Assembly: GCA_014360655.1 (NCBI GenBank)
Contig: JACIXC010000001.1
Location: forward strand, 292,715-356,714
Reading direction: 5' to 3'
DNA: 64,000 bases
Origin: Actinomycetota bacterium
Lineage (GTDB): Bacteria > Actinomycetota > Geothermincolia > Geothermincolales > RBG-13-55-18
Below, one piece after another: positions 2,258-64,000 of the stretch. Position numbers and translations under genes: made by a program. The notes beneath the pieces were generated by a model, which was not told the origin of the DNA, ran no database searches, and worked only from the letters and a program-made list of their open reading frames with translations. Every line of letters begins with the position of its first letter. The first letter of the stretch is position 1.

Positions 2258-3349
2258 TCACGCCCCTCCCTGCCCCTGCCGTTCACCCCTGCGTTCCGCC
2301 TTGCCCTTGAGGATGGCCAGGCCCATGTCCACCATGCGCGCGAAGGGCTCTTCCCGGTCCTCCCGCAACACCACGGAGATCGCCTCGCCCGGACAGCTTC
2401 CCGCGCAGAGTCCGCACCCGAGGCACCTCTCCCGGTCGACCACCGCCACCTCCTTTACCCGCACCGCCCCCACCGGGCAACGCTCCACGCACGACCCGCA
2501 GCCGGTGCATTCCTCCACGTCGACCACCGCCTCGAAGAGGGCGTTAAGGAAGAGGCGCTTGTCCATGCCCCTCCTGGTGATGCCCTTCATGGAGGCGCAG
2601 CAGCAGGGGCAGCAGTTGCAGATGTTGGAAAGGTGCCTGGTGTTGGCGCCCGCATGGACCAGCCCGGCCTCGTCCGCCCGCCTCAGGATATCTATGGCCT
2701 CCGCGGCGTCTATCTCCCGCCCGATGCCGTTCTCGATGTAGTACTCCGCGGCCGTCCCGAAGCTGAGGCAGGTCTCCATGGGAAAACCGCAGCCCTTCCC
2801 GGTAAGCGCCGCCTCCTTGCGGCAGATGCATTCCGCCACCGAGATAGCCCGCGCGGACCGCACCTGGTCCAGCAGGTCCAGGAACGGGTACACCGTGAGG
2901 TCGGCCACCACCCTTTCCCCGAGGGGGAGCACCTTGAAGCCGGGGACGCCGCTGGCGCCCATCTCCTCCATGTAGGCCGACTCGTAATACTCGCGGTAGA
3001 GTGCGGCCAGCTCCCCGTCCATCTTTCCCACCGAGTACTCGTAGAGGCCGATCATGAAGGGGGCGGTGTTGTAATAGGCACGGCCTTCCCTGCGCGAGCG
3101 GAACAGCAGCCCCTTGCGCGACATCTCCTCCAGCCTCTTATCCAGGTACGCGGCGTCGAGCCCGGCGCGCGCGGCGATGGCCTCCGCATCCTCCGGAAAG
3201 GGCGTGAGCAACGTGGCCAGCTCCGCCTCCTCCTCCGTGAAAAGCGCTTTCAGGATGCGTATCTCCACCCCGGAGGGGGTGGAAGGAAATCCCAGGGGCA
3301 TGCGGTCCAGGAACTCGCGCAATCTCCGGTAAGCGTCGTCTTTCGCCAC
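2258..3349 (-). CDS. Fe-S protein with a CxCCPCCC cysteine cluster plus two CxxCxxCxxxCP ferredoxin motifs and an N-terminal wHTH-like region (paralog A)
   Basis: 363-aa ORF. Motifs seen are ICNCCPCCC, CTGCGSCVERCP and CLGCGLCAGSCP. It is a paralog of the CDS at 28005..29063 with the same architecture. It lies immediately upstream of, and co-directional with, the acyl-CoA ligase gene. Confidence 0.75.
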   Translation of the reverse strand: MAKDDAYRRLREFLDRMPLGFPSTPSGVEIRILKALFTEEEAELATLLTPFPEDAEAIAARAGLDAAYLDKRLEEMSRKGLLFRSRREGRAYYNTAPFMIGLYEYSVGKMDGELAALYREYYESAYMEEMGASGVPGFKVLPLGERVVADLTVYPFLDLLDQVRSARAISVAECICRKEAALTGKGCGFPMETCLSFGTAAEYYIENGIGREIDAAEAIDILRRADEAGLVHAGANTRHLSNICNCCPCCCASMKGITRRGMDKRLFLNALFEAVVDVEECTGCGSCVERCPVGAVRVKEVAVVDRERCLGCGLCAGSCPGEAISVVLREDREEPFARMVDMGLAILKGKAERRGERQGQGGA

Positions 3350-11696: not shown

Positions 11697-12029
11697 CTCA
11701 CATCTCCCCTCACATACCGGCAACCCGCGTGCTGCGGCGTTTTCCCGGGAGGACCTCCTTGCGCGCGCAGGGTCGCCCTAACGCCTCACCCGACCTGGTC
11801 ATCGTTATTCATCATTATCATATAATTATTTTGCCCGCGTTCGTTTAATCCTTCCCCGGGTCAGCGCGGCGCGGCACCCCCTTGTCCCCGCAAGGCAACG
11901 ACCCCTCGCGTCAGCCCGACATGCCATGGTGCGGAATCGGAGCCGGGCATGCCCGTGCAGTGCGGAACGCCTCCGTGATCTCCACCCCCTGGAGAATGGA
12001 AACGGTAGGGGCTTCCCCGCCTGAAACCC

Positions 12030-15000
12030 TCATTCGCCGGCGCTTCTCAGGAGCCTTTCCAGCTCCTGCGCGCCCCGGATCTCCTCGAGGAGAAGCGCGG
12101 CCATCTCCCTCACCTCGGGATCCTCGTCCTCCCGCACGGATGCGAGAGGCTCCACCGCCGCTTCCCCGATCCCGGCGATCCTGTTCCAGCGACGCGTGGC
12201 GATGAAATAGCGCGCCCTCTCCGCATCGTCCGCGGGCTCCCACGCGAGCCTGTCCAGCGCCTCGGCCGCCTTCGCCCGCACGTCCGCGTCCCCGTCACGC
12301 AGCCTCATTACCAGCTCCGCCACCGCCCGCCTGTCGCCCAGCTTTCCAAGGGCCCAGGCGGCCCTCCACCTCACCTCCCTGTCCTCGTCCGCCAGCGCGG
12401 AGATGAGGGGTGGCACCGCCTCCGTATCGCCCAGCAGGCCCAGCGCGGAAGCAGCCCTCCTCCTCTTGTCCGCTCCCGCATCCTTCAGGGCGCGCGTGAG
12501 CGGCTTCAGGGCCGGTTTGCCCATGCGCGTGACGTCGTCCCACTTTCCCTGGGCCAGCAGGCTCTCCGCCTTCGCCTCTTCGTCCCCTGTCTCCCAGCCC
12601 ATCTTCTTGAGTATGTCCCGTGCGAGGACGCGCACGGCCTCATCGCGGTGTTGAAGCGCCGCGCGCAAGGGCTGCACCGCAGCCTCGCCTATTTCGCGCA
12701 GTATCCAGGCCACCTTGCGGCGCACGCCGCTGTCGCGATCGGCTAGCGCGCCTACCAGCGCGGGCACCGCTCCCCCTCCGAGTTCCAGCACCTCCCGCCA
12801 GCGTCTCTGCGCGATCAAGCGCTCGGCCGCCTCCGCACCTTCCGCGACGGGGACGGGGGCTACTTCCTCCACCGCCGCCTCCGGGACGGGCGCTTCCGCT
12901 TCCGCGACGGGGACGGGGGCTTCCTCCGCTTCCACCGCGGCAACGGGAGCTCCTTCCTCCACCGCGGCAACTTCCCGTTCCTCCACCGCTTCCTCCGCCA
13001 AGGGGACAGCGGCGGCCTCCACGGCCTCCGGCACTTCCGCGACGGGGACGGGGGCTTCCTCCGCTTCCACCGCGGCAACGGGAGCTCCTTCCTCCACCGC
13101 GGCAACTTCCCGTTCCTCCACCGCTTCCTCCGCCAAGGGGACAGCGGCGGCCTCCACGGCCTCCGGCAAGGGGGCCTCCTCCACGACCAGCGGCTCCACG
13201 GGAACGGGACGCCATCCTATCTCCTCGAGCGCCCTCGCGGCGGCGTCACGCACTCCCTCGTCCTCATCTTCCCTCGCCTTCAGCAATCCATCCACCGCCT
13301 TCTCGTCGCCCAGCCGGCCCAGGGCCCAGACAGCCTTCTCCCTCACCCTGCCGTCACCGTCCAGCAGCGCATCCAAGAGGGGATCGAGCGCCCTGGCGTC
13401 GGCGATCTCCCCCAGGGCCCAGGCGGCCTTGAGGCGCGTCTCGCCGTCTCCCGTGCGCAGCGCATCGATGAGGGATTCCACCGCCACGTCTCCCATGCCG
13501 GCCAGCCTGTCCCACTCCCGGTCGGCGATGAGCCTCCTGATCTCCTCCTCCTCCACAGGTTTCCAGCCCAGCTTCTCCAGAACCAGGAAGGCGACCCTGC
13601 GCACGTCCTCGTCGGGGTCCTTCAGGGCCGCCGTCAAGGAATCCACCGCCCTTCCGTCTCCGATCTCCCCGAGGGCCCAGGCCGTTTTACGCCTCACCTC
13701 CGCGTCCTCGTCCGAGAGCGCCTCCGTGAGCGGGAGCACGGCCCTCGCGTCACCGATGACCCCCAGGGCCCAGGCGGCTCCGCGCCGCACCGAGACGTCC
13801 GTGTCCCCAAGGCGCTCAATCAAGGGTTCCGTGGCCCTCTCGTTCCTGATGACGCCCAGGGCCCAAGCCGCACCCCTGCGCACCTCCGCGTCCCCATCTC
13901 CGAGGGCTGCGAGCAGGGGCTCCAGGGCACCCTCGCCCATGGTGGCGACTTCCTCCCAGTTCCCCTCCTTGATGAGTTCCCTCGCCCTTTCCTCTACCGC
14001 CTTCTCCGGCACGGGCAGCTCCTCCGCGGATACCGCGAGCTCCGAGGGCTTCCACCCCAGCCTCGTTAGGACGGAAGCCGCCAGCGCGCGGGCGTTCTCG
14101 TCCCCCTTCTGCAGCGTGTCCTGGAGCGCCTCCACCACCGGCTCGCCCATCTTCTCCAGGGCGTTCGCCGCCCTTCCCCTGACCTTTTCGTCCGGGTCGC
14201 TCAGGGCTTTTACCAGCGGCGGTATGGCCCTCAGGTCGCCTATGTCACCCAGGACCCTCGCCGCCTCCCTGCGCAGCTCGTCCCCTCCTTCCACGAGGGC
14301 ATCGATAAGGTCGTCGACGGCCGGGTATCCGATCTTCTTGAGGGCTCCCGCCGCCTTTACCCTCACGTCCCTGACATTATCCTCGAGGCGCTTGACCAGC
14401 GCGTTCACGGCGTAGACGCTTCCGATGACCCCCAGGGCCCATGCCGCCCTTCCCCGCACGTCCTCGTCCTCGTCCTCCAATGCCTGGATCAGCGCATCGA
14501 CCGCGGATTCACCCAGCTCCGTTACCTTATCCCACTCCCGCTTGGCGATGTAATGGCCCGCTTTATCCTCCTCTTCATGGGGCTTCCAACCGAGTTTTCC
14601 CAGCACCTCCGAGGCGGCCAGCGCCCCCGCCTCTTCCTCCTCCGGCACTTCCGGCGCGGGAGCGACCATCTCCTGCGTGATCCCCAGCAGGTCCGCGGGC
14701 GTCAGGAAGGGGGCCTCCTCCTGGGCCACCTCCACCGCTTCCTTCTCCTCCTCCGCAAGCGCAGGTTCGCGGCCGGTCTCCACCCTGCCCAATATGTCCT
14801 CGACCATCACCCGCACGCCTTCCTCATCCGCCACACCAGAGAGGGAGGCCGCGGCGCTCTCGCCGATCTCCGAAAGGGCCCATGCCGCCCCGCGCCGCAC
14901 GTCCTCGTCCTCGTCCCTGAGGGCCTCCACCAGGGCATCGGAGGCGCGCTCGTCGCCGATGACCCCCAGGGCCCAGGCGGCTCCCCTCCGTTCCTCGACA

Positions 15001-16283
15001 CCGCCTTCCCTCAGCACCTCGAGCAATGGCTCGACCGCTATCACGCCAAGTCTCCCCAGGGCCCACGCCGCCGCCCTGCGCACGTCCTCGTCCTCGTCTT
15101 TGAGGGCCCCGATGAGGGTCTCTACCGACCTCTCTTCCTGGACCTCACCCAGCGCCAGCGCCGCACTGCGGCGCACGAACCAGTCGCTGTTGTCCAGGGC
15201 TTTCAGCAGGATGTCGAGGATGCTCTCGTCCGCCATCTCCTTGAGGAGCAACGACGCCTCGCGGCGGATGTCCTCGTCTTCCGCGGTGAGGACGTCGGCA
15301 AGGGAATCCACCAGGAGCGCGCCTTGCGCCTTTATAACGGATGCCACCTTGCTCCTCGCCTCCCAGCTCTCCTTTTTCAAGGCCCTCAGAACCGATGGCA
15401 TGGAATCTGGCCCCAGCTCAGCCAGTTTTTCCCATTGGCGGTTGGCGAGGTAGAAGGTGGCCTTGTCCTCATCCCTGACCGGCTGCCAGTCCAGCTTGGC
15501 CAGGACCGCCGCGGCCAGCTTGCGCACATCGTCCTCGCCCTCCCGCATATAACGTTCGAGGGCCGGGATCGCCCTGCGCTCGTGCAGGCTTATCAGGGCC
15601 GCCGCCGCCTCCCTGCGCACCTCCTTGTCCTCATCCTTCATCGCCGCCAGCAGATGTTCCACCGCCGTCTTGTCGCGTATCACCCCCAGGGCGATGGCCG
15701 CGTCCTTCCTCACCGAGGCTTCCTCGGATCCCAGGGAGTTGATGAGGTATTTCGAGGCGACAGCGCCCAGCTTCTCCAGGGCCCACGCCGCCGCCCATCT
15801 CACGTTGTCGTCCTCTTCCTTCAGGGCCTGCACCAGCGGGCGCACGGCCCTGACGTCGCCTATGGACCCCAGCACCAGGGCCGCCTTCGCCTTCGCCTCC
15901 CCTTCCTCCGTCCTCAACGCCTGTACCAGGGAATCGACGACCGATTTGCCTATCTTTTCCAGGCTCCATGCCGCCTTCCACCTGACGTCGCTGTCCTCGT
16001 CGCTCAGCGCCTGGATAAGGGGCCTCGCGGCCGGTTTTCCTATCTCGCCCAGGGCCCACGCCGCCGCCCAGCGGACGTCCTCGTCCTGATCATGCAGGGC
16101 CTCGATAAGTGGCGCCACCGCGCGTGCTCTCTTCAGCTTGCCCAGCGCCAGGGCGGCGTTGATGCGCAAGTTGACGTCCTCGCTCTTGAGGGTCTGTATC
16201 AGCCCGTTGACATCCCTCTTCGCCTCCATCTTCTCGATATTGGGCTTGATCAGCTTTGTCCTGGAAGGCTTGAAGATTTTCAC
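12030..16283 (-). CDS. Giant HEAT-repeat (PBS-lyase HEAT-like) protein with acidic Pro/Ala/Glu/Val-rich low-complexity linker
   Basis: 1417 aa. It contains more than 25 repeats of the ...D.VR..AA.ALG.IGD..A...L..AL.D.D..VR... pattern. A GTG start at 16283 is preceded by AAGGGGAG. An internal linker reads EEAPVPVAE... Confidence 0.85.
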   Translation of the reverse strand: MKIFKPSRTKLIKPNIEKMEAKRDVNGLIQTLKSEDVNLRINAALALGKLKRARAVAPLIEALHDQDEDVRWAAAWALGEIGKPAARPLIQALSDEDSDVRWKAAWSLEKIGKSVVDSLVQALRTEEGEAKAKAALVLGSIGDVRAVRPLVQALKEEDDNVRWAAAWALEKLGAVASKYLINSLGSEEASVRKDAAIALGVIRDKTAVEHLLAAMKDEDKEVRREAAAALISLHERRAIPALERYMREGEDDVRKLAAAVLAKLDWQPVRDEDKATFYLANRQWEKLAELGPDSMPSVLRALKKESWEARSKVASVIKAQGALLVDSLADVLTAEDEDIRREASLLLKEMADESILDILLKALDNSDWFVRRSAALALGEVQEERSVETLIGALKDEDEDVRRAAAWALGRLGVIAVEPLLEVLREGGVEERRGAAWALGVIGDERASDALVEALRDEDEDVRRGAAWALSEIGESAAASLSGVADEEGVRVMVEDILGRVETGREPALAEEEKEAVEVAQEEAPFLTPADLLGITQEMVAPAPEVPEEEEAGALAASEVLGKLGWKPHEEEDKAGHYIAKREWDKVTELGESAVDALIQALEDEDEDVRGRAAWALGVIGSVYAVNALVKRLEDNVRDVRVKAAGALKKIGYPAVDDLIDALVEGGDELRREAARVLGDIGDLRAIPPLVKALSDPDEKVRGRAANALEKMGEPVVEALQDTLQKGDENARALAASVLTRLGWKPSELAVSAEELPVPEKAVEERARELIKEGNWEEVATMGEGALEPLLAALGDGDAEVRRGAAWALGVIRNERATEPLIERLGDTDVSVRRGAAWALGVIGDARAVLPLTEALSDEDAEVRRKTAWALGEIGDGRAVDSLTAALKDPDEDVRRVAFLVLEKLGWKPVEEEEIRRLIADREWDRLAGMGDVAVESLIDALRTGDGETRLKAAWALGEIADARALDPLLDALLDGDGRVREKAVWALGRLGDEKAVDGLLKAREDEDEGVRDAAARALEEIGWRPVPVEPLVVEEAPLPEAVEAAAVPLAEEAVEEREVAAVEEGAPVAAVEAEEAPVPVAEVPEAVEAAAVPLAEEAVEEREVAAVEEGAPVAAVEAEEAPVPVAEAEAPVPEAAVEEVAPVPVAEGAEAAERLIAQRRWREVLELGGGAVPALVGALADRDSGVRRKVAWILREIGEAAVQPLRAALQHRDEAVRVLARDILKKMGWETGDEEAKAESLLAQGKWDDVTRMGKPALKPLTRALKDAGADKRRRAASALGLLGDTEAVPPLISALADEDREVRWRAAWALGKLGDRRAVAELVMRLRDGDADVRAKAAEALDRLAWEPADDAERARYFIATRRWNRIAGIGEAAVEPLASVREDEDPEVREMAALLLEEIRGAQELERLLRSAGE
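12841..13168 (-). repeat. In-frame 135-bp tandem duplication (two perfect copies at 12899-13033 and 13034-13168, plus a degenerate third unit) inside the HEAT-repeat gene linker
   Basis: The two DNA copies are identical. They encode a duplicated 45-aa EAAAVPLAEEAVEEREVAAVEEGAPVAAVEAEEAPVPVAEV segment. Confidence 0.85.
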
Positions 16284-16793
16284 CTGCCATCTCCCCTTGT
16301 CATCCCGCGAAAGACCTCTCCAATGACAACGCGCGAAGGTGCCGGCCCTCTCTCGTCATTTCCGTGTCCCGCAGCGAACAGGGTCCTCGCCGCCCGGGTG
16401 ATGCCCATTTCCTGCCGTGAAGGTCCAGGCACTCTACATCTTATTAAACATCCATTATATACGGCCTTCGTGTCAACCCTGACGACCCCCCTCCTTGCCG
16501 CCCCGGCTTTCGGCGCGAGCACCCCGCCGCCCTTCCCGTCGTGCCGTTGCATATGCCTGGAGGATTTACTTTGCCGAGAAAGAATTATATTGTATGGCAG
16601 GTGAGAATTCTAACGTGCCAGCTGCCGTAAGGCTCCGCTTCGGGGCATGTCGTGATCCGTGGGATTCGTTCATTATCGATGACATGGCCATGTGGTGGCG
16701 AAATCTATGTGCAGAATTTATACTTAGGTTTTGAGGCAAGGGGACTGCCTCACGAGAGGCGATGGATCGGATCTTCTGAAGGAGGAGATGGTA

Positions 16794-25859: not shown

Positions 25860-27182
25860 TTACCGCTCTCCCTGGTTGTCTCCGGTTATTTCCGGCCAGA
25901 AGCGGGCCACCATGTCCAGGGCCAGGGCCGGCCAGCAGAAATCGGGGATGCGCCTGCCGGACCCGTCCCGCGAGTCGTAGAACTCCCAGAAACCCTCTCG
26001 GAGCACCATCCTCACCACCCGCCGCGTGATCTCCCGCGCCACGTCCCGGTACCCGTACTCATCCAGGGCGATGGCCAGCATCCAGCAGAAGTTAACCCAC
26101 ACGCAGTGGCCGGCCCAGAGGCGGCTCTCCACCCACCTCCCCTCCCTCTCCAGCTCGTCCAGGGGGTTGAAGGGAACAGGGTAGGGGGTGAAGAACTCCC
26201 TTGGGTTCAGGAGGTGGTCCTCGATGAGACGGCCCGCCCTCTCGCCGCCGCACAGGCCCCCGAAGAGGGGCATGAGGGAATCGGCGGTCTTCCTCCTCGC
26301 CAGGCGGGGATCGCGGAAGCCGAAGCGCGGGAAGTAGCAACCCACCGTTTCGTCCCAGCACAGCTCGTCCAGGGCCTCCATCATCGCCCGGGCCCTTTCC
26401 CCATACCGCCTCTCCCTCTCCGCGTCACCCAGCTCGTGCGCCAGCTCGGCCATGCTGCGGCAGGCGCGCACGGTCAGGCAGTTGACGGTGAGCTCCTGGC
26501 ACACGAAGCGGTCGGCCCGGGCCAGCTTTCCGGGATCCCACCCGTGGACGCGGTTGAAGGCGAAGAGGACGGTGGGGTAGAGATCGGAGCGCAGCAGGCT
26601 CCGCATCTCTCCCCTTTCCAGCCCCATGGCGCTGAAGAACTGTGGGGACATGTCCGTCCCCGATTCCCAGGGGTGGAAGATGGTCACCAGGCCGTCGCCG
26701 AAGACGTTCCGTTCCTCCAGGAGGAAGTCAAGGCTCCGGCACATGTTGGGCCACAGCCCCTTCAGCCACCCCCGGTCCCCGGTGCTCTCGTACACCAGCT
26801 GCGCGGCGTAGTGGTAGCTGGGGGGGTCGATCATGTAGGAGGCCCCCCGGCGGTCGAACTCCCAGCGCACCAGCCAGGTCTGCAGGTGGCGCAGGCGGGG
26901 GTGCTCCGTGCGGTGGGGCAGCAGCACCTCGTGGGGGAGGTGGCCGTCCTCCCGCACCTGGCGGAAGAGGGTCTCCAGCTCCCGGGCCGCCTTGCGGGCG
27001 TCGATGTGGCGCATGGCCACGGCGTGGAAGCCGCTGTCCCACCCGAAGAGGGATGGGTAGTGGTGGTAGGAGGGCATGTGGTAGTAGATGTCCCCCTCGT
27101 CCACCTCGTTCAGGGCGAGGACGCGCCCGGATTCCTCCAACAGCCTCCGCCAGTCCTCACGCGTCAGCGGCGCGCGGTCCAT
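25860..27182 (-). CDS. Glycoside hydrolase family 63-like (mannosylglycerate/glucosylglycerate hydrolase-like, six-hairpin) protein
   Basis: Trimmed to MDRAPLTREDW... The length and motifs (ESGTDMSPQF, WAGHCVWVNFCW) fit GH63/MGH-type enzymes. Its start overlaps the stop of the upstream small ORF (TGATG). Confidence 0.6.
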   Translation of the reverse strand: MDRAPLTREDWRRLLEESGRVLALNEVDEGDIYYHMPSYHHYPSLFGWDSGFHAVAMRHIDARKAARELETLFRQVREDGHLPHEVLLPHRTEHPRLRHLQTWLVRWEFDRRGASYMIDPPSYHYAAQLVYESTGDRGWLKGLWPNMCRSLDFLLEERNVFGDGLVTIFHPWESGTDMSPQFFSAMGLERGEMRSLLRSDLYPTVLFAFNRVHGWDPGKLARADRFVCQELTVNCLTVRACRSMAELAHELGDAERERRYGERARAMMEALDELCWDETVGCYFPRFGFRDPRLARRKTADSLMPLFGGLCGGERAGRLIEDHLLNPREFFTPYPVPFNPLDELEREGRWVESRLWAGHCVWVNFCWMLAIALDEYGYRDVAREITRRVVRMVLREGFWEFYDSRDGSGRRIPDFCWPALALDMVARFWPEITGDNQGER

Positions 27183-27409
27183 CACTGCGCGGGCGGCTCC
27201 TGGTAGGCCGGTACCCCGTACACCTTCTCGTAGGCGCGGCACCAGGGGCAGACCTTGAGACCCGCCTCCAGCTTGACCAGCTGGTAGAAGATGCCCTTCC
27301 CCTTCTTCCTCCCCAGCTTGCATAGGGTGCACTTGTCACGGCAGAAGGCAGCCCTCCGCAAGGTCTTCTCATCCCACTGCCCGCTCTCGACCCTCTCGCC
27401 GCTCTCCAT
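27182..27409 (-). CDS. Small Cys-rich (zinc-ribbon-like) protein, translationally coupled to the GH63-like gene
   Basis: 75 aa (MESGERVESGQW...) with the Cys pattern CRDKCTLC...CPWC. A strong GAGGGGAGGAG RBS precedes it. The stop overlaps the downstream ATG. Confidence 0.55.
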   Translation of the reverse strand: MESGERVESGQWDEKTLRRAAFCRDKCTLCKLGRKKGKGIFYQLVKLEAGLKVCPWCRAYEKVYGVPAYQEPPAQ

Positions 27410-27448
27410 GTCTCCTCCCCTCGGAGTCGCGTCTTCAACCTTCGACCC

Positions 27449-27481
27449 AAGTTTACATCCTTTCCCCGCCTTCCCCGCAAG
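27449..27481 (-). promoter_or_regulatory. Conserved 33-bp upstream motif, copy 1 (minus-strand sense CTTGCGGGGAAGGCGGGGAAAGGATGTAAACTT)
   Basis: It matches copy 2 at 29117-29149 at 32 of 33 positions. It sits about 40 bp upstream of the small-ORF/GH63 operon start. Confidence 0.6.
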
Positions 27482-28004
27482 TCGCAATTCATCAGCATTT
27501 CCGATAATCCGATGATCGGAGGTGTGGCGAATGAACCGGGGGGAGGCCGTAAGGGTGGGCAAGCGCGGGGTAGCTGTTATTCCCGCCTCTCTTCGCAGGG
27601 CCTATCATCTGGATTAGGGTTCTTTGCCGGCAACGGAGCCTTGCGAGGAAAGGATCATGCCCAGACCGGCGATGGTATACCCCGTCGAGATATATGCGCC
27701 GGAGAGGAGGGCGGGGTTCTTCCGTAAAGTCGCAACGGTGCCGGGGCAAGCGGTGGGCGAAACCCGTCTCATATCCCTCGAGGGGAAAGACATTCCTGTT
27801 TTTTCGACCGCCCCTTCATCCAAGGGAACGCACTTCACAACCGGAGCCATTCGCCATTTCGGCGAAAATCTCCGAAAATCGTCGAAGGCGTTCTCATGGG
27901 CGCTCCTGTGGAGGCTATTTGAAAACGAGACGACAACGGCCGAACAAGGAAAACGCCCCCCCTACCGCGCCGTCCCCGGTGTTCATGAGATCTTCGGGAT
28001 GCGC

Positions 28005-29063
28005 CTATGCCAGGCCCCGCTCCTCCAGGATGCGCCGCATGGTCTCCAGCCTGTCCCGGGGCGGGACCACGGCATCCTCCCTCTCTTCCAGGGTTATGGC
28101 GCCCTGCCCGCAGGTCGGCACGCAGACACCGCAACCGATGCACCTCCGGGGGTCGATGGCCGCTACCCCGCCGTCAACCGCGATGGCATCCATGGGACAG
28201 CGCTCCACGCATACCCCGCAGCCGTCGCATGCATCGGCGTTGAGCAGGGAGCGGTAGTTGGAGTGCAGGATCTCCCCCGGGTTGGGAAGGACCTTCATTA
28301 TCCTCAAGCCCGAGCAGCAGCAGGGACAGCATGAGCACACGAACCTGATCTCCCGGGCGTTCTCCGCCAGGAGCACCAGCCCCAGCTCCTCCGAGCGTTC
28401 GAGTAGCCCCAGGGCTTCATCCACGCCGATCCTCCGGCCGGGCCAGCCGTTCTCCAGGTGATAGCGGGCGAAGTCACCGAACATGAGGCAGATCTCCAGG
28501 GGGTAATGGCAGCGGCGTCCCAGCAATCCCTGCTGCCTGCGGCAGATGCATTGCTTGACGCCTAAGAATTCGTGCTCGCGCACCAGGTCCCTTATGCGGT
28601 CATAGGCGGCGACGGCGTGGGACGCGTCCACCGCCGACCCCACGGGGATGAATCGCGTCTGCAGCGTCTTCGCCCCTGCCATGGCCAGCCCCACGTAGGG
28701 GATGTACTCCTCGACCATCTCCGCCAGCTCGCGGTCCATGGTCCCCAGGTTGTACTCGTATATGCCCACGATGAACTGCTCCAGGCGGTAGCGGGCATCC
28801 CCGCCCTCCCCTTCCCTGTAGATCAACCCCCGGGAGGCCATGGAGGCGAGCCTCTCCGCCGCTTCCGCCTCCTCTATGCCGTGCCGCCGTGCGATCTCTT
28901 TCGGTGAGCGGGGCTCCCGCTCCAAACAAACGGCCAGCTCCGCTTCCTCGGGAGAGAAGAGCTTGGAGAGGATCTTCATCTCCACGCCGCTCTCGGTGGC
29001 GGGGAATCCCCCCGGCATCTTGTCCAGCAGTTCCTTCAGCCTCGCATATGTCTGCTCGCTCAC
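28005..29063 (-). CDS. Fe-S protein with CxCCPCCC cluster plus two ferredoxin-type motifs (paralog B)
   Basis: 352 aa. The GTG start is preceded by AAGGAG. Motifs are CSCCPCCC, CDGCGVCVERCP and CIGCGVCVPTCG. The architecture matches the CDS at 2258..3349. Confidence 0.75.
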   Translation of the reverse strand: MSEQTYARLKELLDKMPGGFPATESGVEMKILSKLFSPEEAELAVCLEREPRSPKEIARRHGIEEAEAAERLASMASRGLIYREGEGGDARYRLEQFIVGIYEYNLGTMDRELAEMVEEYIPYVGLAMAGAKTLQTRFIPVGSAVDASHAVAAYDRIRDLVREHEFLGVKQCICRRQQGLLGRRCHYPLEICLMFGDFARYHLENGWPGRRIGVDEALGLLERSEELGLVLLAENAREIRFVCSCCPCCCSGLRIMKVLPNPGEILHSNYRSLLNADACDGCGVCVERCPMDAIAVDGGVAAIDPRRCIGCGVCVPTCGQGAITLEEREDAVVPPRDRLETMRRILEERGLA

Positions 29064-29116
29064 GTTCTCGCTCCTTGATTCGCTCTCCCCCGGGTCGTGC
29101 CTTCTATCCTCGGTTA

Positions 29117-29149
29117 AAGTTTACATCCTTTCCCCGCCATCCCCGCAAG
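29117..29149 (-). promoter_or_regulatory. Conserved 33-bp upstream motif, copy 2 (CTTGCGGGGATGGCGGGGAAAGGATGTAAACTT)
   Basis: It lies about 55 bp upstream of the GTG start of Fe-S paralog B. Confidence 0.6.
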
Positions 29150-29625
29150 CTGCAGCTTCTCCCCGCATCGCTGTGCCGAACCTCGCCGCTGCCCTTTGAT
29201 TCTTCGATTCACCAGGCCATGACTTTCTACCTTCAGAACTCGAATCTCTATTCCCTCGATGTGCCAGCGGAAACGGGTCAAGTCCCAAAACGTCTGTAAA
29301 CATGATCTGGCATATACCATATCGATCGTTGTTCCTGCCAATATAAGAAAAACCCATCAAGAATGACACCTTTCATGCATCATCATACGAGGGCCGGCAA
29401 CCCACGCCGCGCGAAGCCATCAGCGGGGTGATCCATGTACCTGGAGCCCAGCCCTGTTGATGATGTTCCCTGTTTTCTGCCGTTGATGTTCGTTCGCCTG
29501 AGGCTCAGGCGGAGCCGGCGAAACCGGCGCTTTCGGCCCTCTTGCGACTCCCATCTACCGCCTTATTCATCTCGACGTATTTGTCAAGGAGATTGCGCTC
29601 TATATCCGTAAAACGCACCCTCTGA

Positions 29626-30661
29626 TCAGCGCTCCGACTCCCGCCAGAGAACCGCGAAGACCAGCTTCAAGCACTCCCTCTCTCCCCGGAAGCGCAGGAT
29701 GACCTTGGCCCTCCTGCGCTCCTCTAAAAAGCTGCGCTCCACCAGGTTGGTGGCGCGGATGTTCCTGCGGTGCACGGAGGGGAGCTTTAGGTGGGCCAGG
29801 GAGGCCTCCAGGTCCTCGGCGAAGCTCTTCATGGCGGAGGAGAACTCGGGTGAGAACCTCTTCGCTGTGACCTGGGCCATCATTTTCCCCGCCTCGTAGT
29901 CTGGGGCGTCCCGCACAGCCTCCAACCAGGGCTTGAGGAGGGGCCGGACGTTTTCAGGCACTTTATCCAGGACGTTTCTCATCTTGTACACCCAGCAGCG
30001 TATCCTCTCCGCCTCCGGCTCATGCGGCCTCCGCCGCCTTGGTGAGGCCGGGAGCGCCATCGGTGGTTACGGTCAAGGGGGGCTTGAGGCCCCGGGAGAC
30101 CATGTCCCTGAAGTGGGAGAGCCAGTCCTCGTAGGATTCCTTTCCGCCCAAGGTCATGGAGAGGAGCACCTTGGCGCCGCAAGAGAGGATGGCCCAGGAG
30201 ACCAAGACTCCCTCCTTTAAGCCCGCCTGGGCCCGGAGCGATTCGTAGACGGCGTCGGAGAAAAGGTAGACGACATCGAGGCCGGAGAGGTCCCGCCCCT
30301 GGAACTCCTCGTATTCCTCCCACAGGACCTCGGTCAGGCGGCTCACAGAAGAGCGGGAGAGAAGCGATTTCCCGCCCCGGGATATCTCGCACAAGTGGTC
30401 CTCTGCCTCCCGGGTGGACAGTCCGCCGGCGTACATCTCGACCACCAGCCTTTCCGAGACGTCGGTGCGCAGCTTGAGCGCCTCCCAGAGCTCCAGGCGG
30501 AAGGTCTCCCCCGTCCCCCTCATCTGGGGTAGGTCTATCTCGAGCCTGCCCTCGGCGCAGTCTATATGCCTCTGCTTGTAGCCGTTGCGCCAGCCGGGCG
30601 ATTCCCCGCCTGAGCACTGGTAGCGCTCCCTGCTCAGCCCTTCCGAAACCTCGGCCTCCAA
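29626..30661 (-). pseudogene. IS256-family (Mutator-type) transposase, frameshifted and N-terminally truncated remnant
   Basis: Two overlapping ORFs in different frames cover the gene. ORF 30020..30661 is the N-proximal part (GWRNGYKQRHIDCAEGRLEIDLPQMR) and ORF 29626..30060 is the C part (CWVYKMRNVLDKVP...RFRGERECL). Intact IS256 transposases are a single ORF of about 400 aa. No canonical N-terminus is found upstream. Confidence 0.75.
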
Positions 30662-31088
30662 CGCCTCCCAGATCAGCTTTCCCGCTCCATCCTTATCAGC
30701 TCGCTGTCAGATTCTCTGCCTCGTTCTCTTCTATGAGCTCTTTTTGCCTTCTTCTCCAGCAACTCGCTCGGTGATATTCTTTTCATAGGTCTGGACTCCT
30801 TTCGTCGGTTGCTTTGGTTGTGCATAACAACCGATATGGTAGTCCAGACCGCTTAGAATTTACAGACAGTTTAGGACGTAGCCAGCCGAGAGATGGGCCA
30901 CAGGTTCGCTTTAGCGATATCTCCAAGATCAGCAGCCACTTGGGCAACAGGCCCTTTTGGTTACACTAATCACACGTCTGGATAACCCGGCAAGGAAGTG
31001 AGCTGCGTTACTGTAAATGCCATGCATGCACAAGCTACCAGACCTGAATTTGAGTGGGGGAAGTGACCTCTATTTCTGTACAAAATTT

Positions 31089-31649
31089 CTATGACGGCCA
31101 TTCGCCCTTTTCCCAGACAGTGGGCTCCAGGTCGTAACGCATGCTAATCGTCTTGCCTCTAGGATCTGCTTCATTTTCATGGTGATTTTCAAGGAAGCCA
31201 AGTTTTTCGTAGAAGTCCCGACTGTCTTGGTAGGCATCAACCGAAATAAAGCGTAACCCGATCCATTCTTGAATCTCTAAAGCTAGACCTATTACGTCAT
31301 AGACCATTGTGCGACCTATGCCCTTGCCTTGGAAGTCTTTTTGTACGCCGAGCCTGCATATCTTAAGGGCAGGGTATTCGCTGTATGGGATATTATATTC
31401 TCTTTTAATTCTATCTTTTTCCTCTTTGGCGAGGCTTATGCAGTCAGTCGCCAAGCTATAAAAACCTACGGTTTTCCCCTTGTATTTTACCAGAGTAGTC
31501 ATGGCCACATTGGCGTTCTGGTGGCGAAGTGCGTCATTGATAATAAAGTCGTTGAGGTCTTCGTCACCACAATCAAAATCCGAGGGGATATTCTCCTCGG
31601 ATAGTGGTTCAGAAGTCAAATCTTGCAGGGAGATATTCTCATCCATCAC
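31089..31649 (-). CDS. GNAT-family acetyltransferase, TacT/AtaT-like toxin type
   Basis: 186 aa. The N-terminal motif is FDCGDEDLNDFI. The GNAT A-motif reads QGKGIGRTMV. The gene is low-GC and overlaps an upstream small ORF by 11 bp. Confidence 0.6.
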   Translation of the reverse strand: MMDENISLQDLTSEPLSEENIPSDFDCGDEDLNDFIINDALRHQNANVAMTTLVKYKGKTVGFYSLATDCISLAKEEKDRIKREYNIPYSEYPALKICRLGVQKDFQGKGIGRTMVYDVIGLALEIQEWIGLRFISVDAYQDSRDFYEKLGFLENHHENEADPRGKTISMRYDLEPTVWEKGEWPS

Positions 31650-31827
31650 GCCCCTTTAGGGTAGTTGGAAAGGGCTGACGATGCTTCTTAAGCTCCCTGT
31701 GAATTTCCCGCGCTTCCTTCAGGAGTCGCTCTTTCTGCGGGCTGTATTTCACCTTGGTGATACTCTGACAGAAGAGATCTATGCTCTTGCCCTTGAGTGT
31801 AGGTGTCGGTTCTATCGGTCTTGCCAT
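31639..31827 (-). CDS. Putative cognate small antitoxin (62 aa; weak RHH/DUF1778-like resemblance)
   Basis: The ATG is preceded by GGAGG. The ORF overlaps the GNAT gene start, which is the typical toxin-antitoxin arrangement. Similarity to TacA-type antitoxins is weak (KSIDLFCQSI ~ SLTDFVVSNI). Confidence 0.4.
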   Translation of the reverse strand: MARPIEPTPTLKGKSIDLFCQSITKVKYSPQKERLLKEAREIHRELKKHRQPFPTTLKGRDG

Positions 31828-32130
31828 TTCTGCCTCCGTCGAAAAACTAAGAGAGTGTACCTTATGGTAAATTCTTCAGGCTCTCCGTTTCCTCCTTTTC
31901 TATATTCTAAATATTTATATCGTGCCCATCGATTAATTATTTTAACCTATTTCGTCAACCCTGAAACACGTTCAGCCTGCCAGACCTGAGTAAGATCCCG
32001 GGCTGCTTCCGATTCTTTATGCAATCCCGGAGTCCCTGTCCAGGCATGCCCGCTTCTCCAGGCTTTTAAACGGGAGCCCACGCACTATCCTAGCAACAAC
32101 CATGGACAGCAACAAGTGACAGGGTTGGTA

Positions 32131-32523
32131 AAAAGGGGAGGGAGTGGGCCTGTAAGCCGGATTCTGTACCCGGGGGGATGCCCCGGGCGGTGGTCATCCA
32201 TCTGGGACCGCCGTTACCGGCGGCCTCATGCGGCCTACCCGAGCCTCGAGCGCCGCGGGCCACGGCATCGGCTCCTATTTGGCCTTGCTCCGGGAGGGGT
32301 TTACCAAGCCGGCCCCGTCACCGGGACCGCTGGTGGGCTCTTACCCCACCTTTTCACCCTTGCCCCTGCCCCCATGGGGGGCGGTGGGCGGTTTCCCTTT
32401 CTGTGGCACTTTCCGTCGGGTCACCCCGCCTGGGCGTTACCCAGCTCCCTGCCCTGCGGAGTCCGGACTTTCCTCGAGCGCGCCGGCCGGCGCACCCGCG
32501 ACCACCCGGCCTACTCCCTCCAC
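32131..32523 (-). ncRNA. rnpB: RNase P RNA, bacterial type A
   Basis: Three universally conserved segments are seen on the minus strand. GAGGAAAGUCCGGACUCC is the P4 5' strand (plus 32458-32478). ACAGAAUCCGGCUUACAG is the P4 3' strand (plus 32152-32169). GGUGGGGUAAGAGCCCACC matches the GGUGCGGUAAGAGCGCACC region. The P1 stem GGAGGGAGUAGGCC pairs with GGCCCACUCCCUCC, followed by a U-run. Confidence 0.85.
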
Positions 32524-63035: not shown

Positions 63036-64000
63036 CTTCCCACCTCCTTTTACCTTCTGATTATATATGCTGCCGAAGACAGACTCTTGCTATGCCTTTA
63101 TCGCCGGGCGAATCGCGGCATTGCCGGCGTCCCATCGATGTCTCGCCTTGCGGGGCATTGCTATCTTCCCCCATAAAACACAGGCGCGCATGGCTTCGCC
63201 TTCCCCCTCGCCTCGCCGGGCACCGCTCACCTATCCCGGCCCTCCCGGGAGAGGCGGAGGCCGCGCCTCGCGGCGCCCCGCCTTGCGGGGCACGGATGGG
63301 CCTCCCCGCAAGGCGCACCAGCGTGGGGCTTCGCCCCATCGCGCCCGGCCTCGCCCATCCCATGCGGCGAGGCCAGCCCCTTGCCGGGCTTCGCGTCACG
63401 GCTTGCGGCGAAGCCCGGCCGGCCCGGCATGGCGGATGCGATCCGCGCATCGCCGGGAGGCGAGGCGCAAGCCTTGGAGGAACGTGCAAACGGCTTTGAG
63501 CCTGGCTGGCGCGCACGCATAGTACGCAAGCTGTGTGGAAATAAGCCCATCGCATCACGCATGACGGTGCCGTTCATGGGAGGATAGGTGGAGGAGTTTG
63601 AGGGGGTTGCGGAGCCGAGCGCGGCCGTTTTCCGGGGGGTTTCCCCGCCCCGCAGGCATGGCCTCTGGGCTGGGATTATGCCCTTCCCGGCCCTCCCGCT
63701 CCCGGCGCCGTTTTTTTTAGCCGCTCTGCGTGGGGAACATTTGGCCTCGCATACGGTCGCCCCTTTTCCCCACCTAGTTCCCAGCCTTCTTCCCTATAAG
63801 CATCTGCGCACCGCCCCGCCGAAATCTTGTGGCCACATTCTCACATGGCGATTCGGTTGCCTGCCCGCGGATGGCCGCTCGGGGTTCCCTGCGGCCGAGA
63901 GGTGCCGGAACGAGCCTCTGCTAAACGCAAGAAAACAAAAGTAAAACCCAGAAAACCCCAAAAACTACAAAAACCCCAAAAACCAAAAAAGATAAAACAT

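Follow-up and report, generated by a model that had tools for sequence, protein, structure and literature searches.

Organization of the Locus

The 33-bp motif CTTGCGGGGA(A/T)GGCGGGGAAAGGATGTAAACTT occurs exactly twice in the window, by which we mean the whole 64-kb stretch of DNA that was analyzed, and both copies lie on the minus strand (27449-27481 and 29117-29149). The genes and features that surround the two copies, together with the paralog of one of the downstream genes, are as follows.

2258-3349, minus strand: Fe-S paralog A, 40% identical to Fe-S protein B
25860-27182, minus strand: GH63/MGH1-like glycoside hydrolase, start ATG at 27182
27182-27409, minus strand: small Cys-rich ORF of 75 aa (C-x3-C-x2-C ... 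C-P-W-C), a conserved small-protein family
27410-27448, minus strand: leader of copy 1, homologous to the leader of copy 2, with the SD GGAGGAG before ATG 27409
27449-27481, minus strand: core copy 1, with the -35-like TTGCGG at 27480-27475 and the -10-like TAAACT at 27455-27450
27478-27471 and 27469-27462, minus strand: direct repeats in copy 1, GCGGGGAA at both positions
27482-28004, no strand assigned: degenerate spacer of ~520 bp, with a truncated AbrB/SpoVT-like ORF at 27531-27617 on the plus strand
28005-29063, minus strand: Fe-S protein B, 352 aa, with a wHTH-like N-terminus, a 10-Cys middle domain and a C-terminal 2x[4Fe-4S] ferredoxin domain
29064-29116, minus strand: leader of copy 2, with the SD AAGGAG before GTG 29063
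29117-29149, minus strand: core copy 2, with the -35-like TTGCGG at 29148-29143 and the -10-like TAAACT at 29123-29118
29146-29139 and 29137-29130, minus strand: direct repeats in copy 2, GCGGGGAT and GCGGGGAA, respectively
29282-30877, minus strand: IS256-like element, its Mutator-family transposase split by a frameshift
32137-32517: RNase P RNA gene (Rfam, 295 bits)

The stop codon of the small Cys-rich ORF overlaps the ATG of the GH63/MGH1-like gene as TGATG, and the same coupling is present in relatives, in agreement with the translational coupling of these two genes described in the initial annotation. No Pfam or NCBIfam model matches the small ORF. Fe-S protein B, which is preceded by the other copy of the motif, belongs to a different family from either the small Cys ORF or the GH63 hydrolase, with no coding similarity reported between them. 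Its paralog A lies 25 kb from the motif copies, ~25 nt after an S8 peptidase gene, and is followed by the gene for an AMP-binding ligase, which bears out its earlier placement directly upstream of an acyl-CoA ligase.

Comparison with four relatives (GH63 at 81–86% identity) reveals that both copies of the motif lie in DNA that has been rearranged. The gene order in the relatives is RNase P RNA, a CCG-domain gene, the small ORF and GH63, with Amidohydro_2 and a 94-aa gene preceding the RNase P RNA wherever the contigs reach that far; the CCG-domain gene is intact in three of the four and reduced to a 69-aa remnant in the fourth. In the window, the 4.7 kb from the RNase P RNA to the small ORF (27380-32126) differ from this arrangement and replace the CCG-domain gene. 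In the segment, a low-GC GNAT toxin, preceded by a small ORF, is followed by the IS256-like element, copy 2 with Fe-S B, the ~520 bp of degenerate DNA with its truncated AbrB-like ORF and finally copy 1, such that the two copies share the segment with an IS256-like element, toxin-antitoxin remnants and pseudogene fragments. The degenerate spacer at 27482-28004 was considered as a remnant of the lost CCG gene and rejected, as no trace of that gene was found in it; no minus-strand terminator is predicted within the spacer.

The IS256-like element lies upstream of copy 2 and is bounded by 19-nt terminal inverted repeats (29282-29300 and 30859-30877). The terminal repeat ends at 29282, leaving 133 nt between the element and copy 2, so that the motif is not an IS end, and the possibility that it forms part of the element was discarded. 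An outward promoter-like site is present at the same end of the IS (29340-29369) and could also drive Fe-S B.

Orthologs of Fe-S B in other MAGs (72–83% identity) are found beside PadR-cupin-hcp or other genes and not beside GH63, and we infer that the locus adjacent to hcp, the hybrid-cluster protein gene, is the ancestral place of the Fe-S B gene. A protein identical to Fe-S B is encoded in an NCBI Actinomycetota MAG and also on two short contigs from farmland metagenomes, both of which are 100% identical to the window; the strain is present in the farmland samples ERZ1761208 and SRR11866714.

Extent and Conservation of the Two Copies

The two copies are identical at 32/33 positions, the sole difference being the A/T at motif position 11. 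Their coordinates and their location upstream of start codons, as reported in the initial annotation, were confirmed; the distance, which had been put at 40–55 bp, was measured as 39 nt from copy 1 to the ATG at 27409 of the small Cys-rich ORF and 53 nt from copy 2 to the GTG at 29063 of Fe-S protein B. None of 100 dinucleotide-preserving shuffles yielded even one match to the 33-bp motif (expected number, 0), and no third copy is present in the 64-kb window even when 9 mismatches are allowed.

The length of 33 bp holds for the core, but the homologous unit is longer. A repeat finder aligns 72 nt at 78% identity (27415-27486 versus 29083-29154), and blastn gives 82.1% over 67 nt (27415-27481 versus the copy-2 region on contigs L001 and L002). 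All of the similarity beyond the core is on the downstream (leader) side, where 22/39 positions match without gaps (shuffle p about 4e-4), a level reached by 10 of the 16,037 purine-rich 39-mers in all sequences in hand. Upstream of the core, 15 of 60 nt match (25%), as for random sequence, and the homology ends at the 5′ edge. Conservation is significantly higher in the core than in the leader (32/33 versus 22/39 identical, i.e. 1 versus 17 differences; Fisher p=6e-5), and the core is either more constrained than its own leader or homogenized by a short gene-conversion tract, two origins that cannot be separated with two copies.

The copies repeat in direct orientation at a distance of 1668 bp, with Fe-S B and degenerate DNA enclosed between them, which raises the question of whether they are a neutral scar, a short segment copied in the recent rearrangement and left as direct repeats flanking an inserted 1.67-kb Fe-S B segment. 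Such an origin is consistent with this bracketing, with the location of both copies in the lineage-specific replacement at 27380-32126, with its IS, toxin-antitoxin genes and pseudogene fragments, and with the absence of the motif from all relatives examined (see below). However, one neutral duplication does not explain 1/33 differences in the core versus 17/39 in the leader (p=6e-5), and in both copies the strand, the distance and the arrangement of -35, -10 and SD with respect to a real start codon are the same. We therefore consider a purely neutral origin improbable.

Membership of a dispersed REP/MITE-like family of intergenic repeats is highly improbable. The 5′ word of the motif, CTTGCGGGG, does recur in a hairpin-rich intergenic region (63140-63420), but the full motif is found only twice in 64 kb, contains no palindrome, hairpin or terminal inverted repeats, has no inverted partner and shows the same orientation relative to the genes in both copies, and database scans found nothing. 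The initial annotation had pointed out that a REP family would be expected at many positions unrelated to gene starts, and no such scatter is seen within the 64-kb window.

Resemblance of the Core to a Promoter

When read on the coding strand, the core consists of TTGCGG at positions 2–7, a spacer of 19 nt and TAAACT at positions 27–32. Promoters of the sigma-70/SigA type carry a TTGACA-like -35 element and a -10 element of the form TANNNT/TATAAT at a spacing of 16–18 nt. In both copies TAAACT fits this -10 type, and TTGCGG agrees with the -35 consensus at 3/6 positions; the spacer being 19 nt, the site was not called by a consensus scan that covers 16–18 nt only. With the pattern TTGNNN-N16-19-TANNNT, the motif is the only match in either upstream region. 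A CGA common to both copies is located 6–8 nt beyond TAAACT, at the predicted start site, and from these positions transcription would be expected to start near G27443/A27442 for copy 1 and G29111/A29110 for copy 2.

The organism clearly uses sigma-70-like promoters, judged from the RNase P RNA gene (TTTATC-17-TATAAT) and a tRNA gene (TTGCCT-17-CATAAT) of the same window. Among the chance matches to the 18-mer core, in unrelated metagenome contigs, GGATGTAAACT happens to precede a tRNA by 13 nt, and TTGAGC lies 18 nt ahead of the TAAACT; the string thus fits a -10 region well. An ECF-type promoter, GGAAA-N16-CGA, was also considered and is a conceivable reading of the motif. ECF-type promoters usually carry a CGT -10 element, and this is missing from the motif.

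Within the spacer, GCGGGGAW-N-GCGGGGAA forms a direct repeat of 9-bp period, which overlaps the -35 element and spacer in both copies. An activator or repressor would be expected to act from a site so placed, and the G-rich, internally repeated character of the spacer suggests factor dependence.

The same stretch could in principle act after transcription, as a cis-regulatory RNA in which a G-rich leader presents the SD-like GGGGAAAGGA followed by an ATG-TAA start-stop, or else folds into a riboswitch-like structure. An ATG-TAA does lie at motif positions 24–29, directly after the SD-like purine run, and paralog A uses the same run as its SD. Against this, there is no Rfam match at the gathering threshold or at E<=1, the folding z-scores of −0.05 and −1.4 come with no structure shared between the copies, and the spacing from SD to ATG is approximately zero. 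Furthermore, an element of this kind needs a promoter upstream, yet the similarity stops at the 5′ edge. We give an RNA element very little credence, and it is disfavored together with the REP-type repeat and the neutral scar.

Taken together, the element is real, non-random and probably functional. The best reading of the 33-bp core, as judged from its sequence, is a shared promoter/operator, because it is non-coding DNA on the coding strand at a promoter-like distance from two start codons, has -35/-10-like hexamers and is more conserved than its leader. The shared operator or promoter element put forward in the initial annotation is retained in part: the hexamers, the distance and the conservation of the core fit a promoter, but a dedicated regulator is not needed, as duplication explains the identity of the copies.

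Absence of the Motif from Orthologous Loci and Databases

The motif was sought in nine orthologous upstream regions from relatives (72–86% protein identity), five of them upstream of Fe-S B orthologs (L015, L019, L020, L044 and L045) and four upstream of GH63-operon orthologs (L023, L024, L027 and L043). It is absent from all nine, the best ungapped matches being at most 22/33, which is the noise level, and local alignments of these regions to the motif are no better than those of shuffles. There is thus no phylogenetic footprint. A resemblance in L023 (CTTGCAGGGAGGCGG...) was rejected as it is not significant against shuffles (68/300 and 20/300). The motif is also absent upstream of paralog A.

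Wider scans, of collections that do not contain the source genome, gave a similar result. The 20-mer GCGGGGAAAGGATGTAAACT has no match in 185,579 species genomes, the 18-mer core has 12 matches in metagenome contigs, all of them unrelated and due to chance, and the 5′ half of the motif has 13 chance matches in species genomes, from unrelated phyla. The element is lineage-specific, since it is absent from the nine orthologous regions and the database scans return chance matches alone, and both of its copies are in recently remodelled DNA.

Fe-S Protein B and Its Fitness as a Regulator

Homologs of Fe-S B number at least 1600. Most of them go under the names "4Fe-4S binding protein," "ferredoxin" or "RnfB," and the family is uncharacterized rather than rare. 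An alignment of 40 members reveals ten conserved Cys, invariant or nearly so, before the ferredoxin domain (C172, C174, C185, C192 and C243-x-C-C-x-C-C-C250), and the ferredoxin domain of Fe-S B holds eight further conserved Cys. The octa-Cys CxCCPCCC cluster of the initial annotation has to be corrected, as the run holds six Cys, C-x-C-C-x-C-C-C, and its Pro is not conserved. A literature search on the Cys run (CCPCCC) found nothing relevant.

The C-terminal ~60 residues are the only part of Fe-S B to match Pfam, NCBIfam or PDB sequences above cut-off. The first ~270 residues have no Pfam/NCBIfam match above cut-off, and no PDB sequence or fold match except for the wHTH piece. The C-terminal ferredoxin domain is canonical and resembles the 2x[4Fe-4S] domains of RnfB/polyferredoxins, and automated annotations call homologs "RnfB." However, the score of Fe-S B against TIGR01944 is 32.9 bits versus a cut-off of 68.7, with the ferredoxin domain alone aligning, and its scores against RnfB and the other NCBIfam models are all far below the cut-offs. 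A family that is large, usually mislabelled and without a characterized or solved relative for its first ~270 residues may merit more attention.

In the AlphaFold model of Fe-S B, which is confident (pLDDT 89.9), the N-terminus has a wHTH-like fold, as had been proposed from the sequence, and a Foldseek search of the PDB returned the ferredoxin part and weak MarR/ArsR-like winged-helix matches only. The Pfam scores of this region, on the other hand, are below threshold (MarR_2, 25.9 versus 27; TrmB, 19.1 versus 25.6), and helix 3, which would have to recognize the DNA, is acidic throughout the family (mean net charge −1.8 in 40 homologs). With sub-threshold Pfam scores and no basic recognition helix, Fe-S B does not classify as a MarR/TrmB-type DNA-binding regulator, and its wHTH looks poorly suited to DNA binding. 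The same two observations weaken the earlier hint that the Fe-S proteins act as sensors or regulators. Fe-S B is likewise not favored, as judged from sequence, as the regulator of its own motif, on the basis of the acidic helix 3, the sub-threshold HTH and the absence of the motif at paralog A and at the orthologs.

A Regulon or a Reused Promoter

The near-identity of the two copies had led the initial annotation to conclude that they define a regulon. In that case the G-rich direct repeats would be the binding site of a dedicated transcription factor, the motif would be its operator and more copies would exist in the genome. The overlap of the direct repeat GCGGGGAW-N-GCGGGGAA with the -35 element and spacer in both copies is in keeping with this, as is the conservation of the core beyond that of the leader. 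Moreover, the word CTTGCGGGG is over-represented (7 occurrences versus 1.1 expected, 6 of them intergenic), and a GAF histidine kinase is preceded by a partial match in two halves (11843-11894). The conclusion does not follow from the data, however. The 64-kb window holds only two full sites, which are adjacent to each other, nothing similar is present upstream of the orthologs in nine relatives or of paralog A, and the genome and metagenome scans give chance matches alone. The third site, at 11843-11894, is spaced and built differently from the two copies, the motif has no candidate regulator linked to it, and the wHTH of Fe-S B looks poorly suited to DNA binding. A dedicated operator of a wider regulon is therefore unlikely, and it is quite doubtful that the element is a composite promoter-operator in which a factor on the 9-bp-period repeats ties Fe-S B to the GH63 operon and to further members elsewhere in the genome. 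If a regulon were nonetheless present, it would be a small one that joins redox and osmolyte functions in an uncultured, deep-branching lineage of actinobacteria, its GH63 operon being of the compatible-solute type (mannosyl-/glucosylglycerate hydrolase-like).

On balance we lean toward promoter reuse as the best explanation, that is, a duplicated promoter-leader cassette that co-expresses two units. This lineage would then carry two copies of a ~72-bp cassette made up of a promoter and its leader, of which the 33-bp sequences are the conserved core. The core itself would be a promoter for the housekeeping sigma factor (sigma-70/SigA-type), composed of TTGCGG, the 19-nt G-rich spacer and TAAACT. 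Transcription would start at the conserved CGA ~7 nt downstream of the -10 element, to give leaders of ~34 and ~48 nt before good SDs, and the direct repeat in the spacer is a plausible operator for some factor. The location of both copies in a rearranged, IS-bearing segment means that duplication ancestry explains their identity without a dedicated regulator.

The pair may have arisen via duplication or promoter capture during the local rearrangement, the putative steps of which, in an order that is itself conjectural, are the insertion of the IS256-like element, the insertion of the toxin-antitoxin genes, the loss of the ancestral CCG-domain gene and the relocation of Fe-S B from its hcp-adjacent locus. 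The cassette would in this way have come to stand both before the relocated Fe-S B and before the small-ORF/GH63 operon, which had been bereft of its upstream neighbor. After the duplication of the cassette its core would have stayed nearly invariant, and the two adjacent units would thereby be co-expressed. Should this account hold, the locus would offer a clean natural example of promoter reuse, with a near-invariant core and leaders that have drifted, and it would aid the reading of expression in uncultured Actinomycetota and of how rearranged genes regain expression.

Comparison with Known Systems

The motif resembles a sigma-70/SigA-type promoter in the combination of TTGCGG and TAAACT, the purine at the predicted +1 and a leader of 34–48 nt with an SD, and it is also similar to the promoters found in the window before the RNase P RNA gene and a tRNA gene. 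It differs from them in its weak -35 element, in its G-rich repeated spacer and in the length of this spacer, 19 nt as opposed to the 17 nt of the local housekeeping promoters.

Promoter capture mediated by an IS offers a second parallel, given the rearranged locus and the IS256-like element directly upstream of the relocated Fe-S B. In the present case, however, 133 nt separate the motif from the IS, and copy 1 has no IS adjacent to it.

The third parallel is with putative mobile promoters, defined as sequences with at least 80% identity over at least 50 nt upstream of non-paralogous genes, within the interval −150 to −50 (PMC3575422). The families described are mostly pairs, and whether selection or recent duplication accounts for them was left undecided in that study (Matus-Garcia, Nijveen & van Passel 2012; PMC3575422). 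The two units here are 82.1% identical over 67 nt, above the identity threshold of that definition (PMC3575422), and precede non-paralogous genes, Fe-S B being unrelated to the small ORF/GH63. They span −39 to −110 and −53 to −124, and so overlap the interval in part. The motif pair is therefore like the putative mobile promoters (PMC3575422) in being closely similar non-coding DNA before non-paralogous genes of one genome with an IS nearby, and unlike them in that its units are not strictly within −50 to −150, its copies are 1.7 kb apart and its mobility is putative. Promoter reuse at this locus would represent a new instance of a known phenomenon rather than a new class of mechanism.

Small Cys-rich protein and its upstream region

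Motif copy 1 precedes a small Cys-rich ORF, which was located as follows.

27182-27409, minus strand: small Cys-rich ORF in the window
L023 1807-2025, L024 4017-4235, L027 5786-6004 and L043 1236-1481: the same ORF in relatives carrying the GH63 operon

The encoded protein (72-81 aa) has the pattern C-x3-C-x2-C ... CPWC. In all four of these relatives, as in the window, its ORF and the GH63/MGH1-like gene are translationally coupled. The family comprises 71 clusters at 50% identity, and neither Pfam nor NCBIfam contains a model for it. In the closest relative, the region 5' of the small ORF (L023 1620-1790) carries two similar promoter-like stretches ~100 nt apart, containing ...GAAAAATATAGGATGGGAAGGAA... 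and ...GTGAAATATAGAATAAGGAAGGAA..., which hints that promoter duplication is recurrent at the small ORF/GH63 locus.

Elements within the motif, partial matches and their surroundings

27453-27458 and 29121-29126, minus strand: ATG-TAA "start-stop" within the motif, directly 3' of an SD-like GGGGAAAGGA
11843-11894, minus strand: CTTGCGGGGA, 26 nt, then CGGGGAAGGATTAAAC, 5' of the gene for a multi-GAF histidine kinase
12030-16355, minus strand: gene for a 1441-aa protein, nearly all HEAT/PBS-lyase-type repeats, adjoining the GAF histidine kinase
63140-63420: GC-rich intergenic region with many hairpins and CCTTGCGGGG in both orientations, e.g. CCTTGCGGGGcacggatgggcctCCCCGCAAGG

With practically no spacing between the SD and the start, the start-stop is probably a coincidence. 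Both motif halves are present at 11843-11894, wider apart than in the 33-bp motif and followed by an AT-rich promoter-like stretch. The 9-mer CTTGCGGGG is over-represented (7 observed against 1.1 expected), an excess to which the region 63140-63420 contributes; possibly, this region is a REP-like element with no relation to the 33-bp motif.

Genomic context of Fe-S B orthologs

L015 6605-11059, L019 7841-11059 and L044 1144-3104: Fe-S B orthologs in other MAGs beside genes for PadR, a cupin and the hybrid-cluster protein (Prismane/hcp)

These neighbors suggest an ancestral link between the Fe-S B family and Hcp, to which the family is possibly a redox partner.

RNase P RNA, IS256-like element and toxin-antitoxin-like genes

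32137-32517, minus strand: bacterial RNase P RNA class A (295 bits)
29282-30877, minus strand: IS256-like element, Mutator-family transposase, 19-nt terminal inverted repeats
27531-27617, plus strand: truncated 28-aa AbrB/SpoVT-like ORF, MNRGEAVRVGKRGVAVIPASLRRAYHLD
31089-31827, minus strand: GNAT acetyltransferase gene and an overlapping 62-aa ORF ahead of it, GC low (~0.5)

The RNase P RNA gene, with TTTATC-17-TATAAT as its promoter, was first spotted as a stretch retaining 88-95% DNA identity to relatives, against only 75-80% in adjoining genes.

The transposase gene of the IS256-like element is broken into two pieces, the ORFs at 30020-30661 and 29626-30060. Close to the element's end, a promoter-like GTGTCA-18-TATATT (29369-29340) faces outward to Fe-S B.

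Divergent to motif copy 1, the AbrB/SpoVT-like ORF has its own SD and a -10-like box, GATAAT (27503-27508), and is probably an antitoxin pseudogene. The GNAT acetyltransferase gene looks to be of foreign origin, and its arrangement with the 62-aa ORF resembles that of a GNAT-toxin/antitoxin pair.
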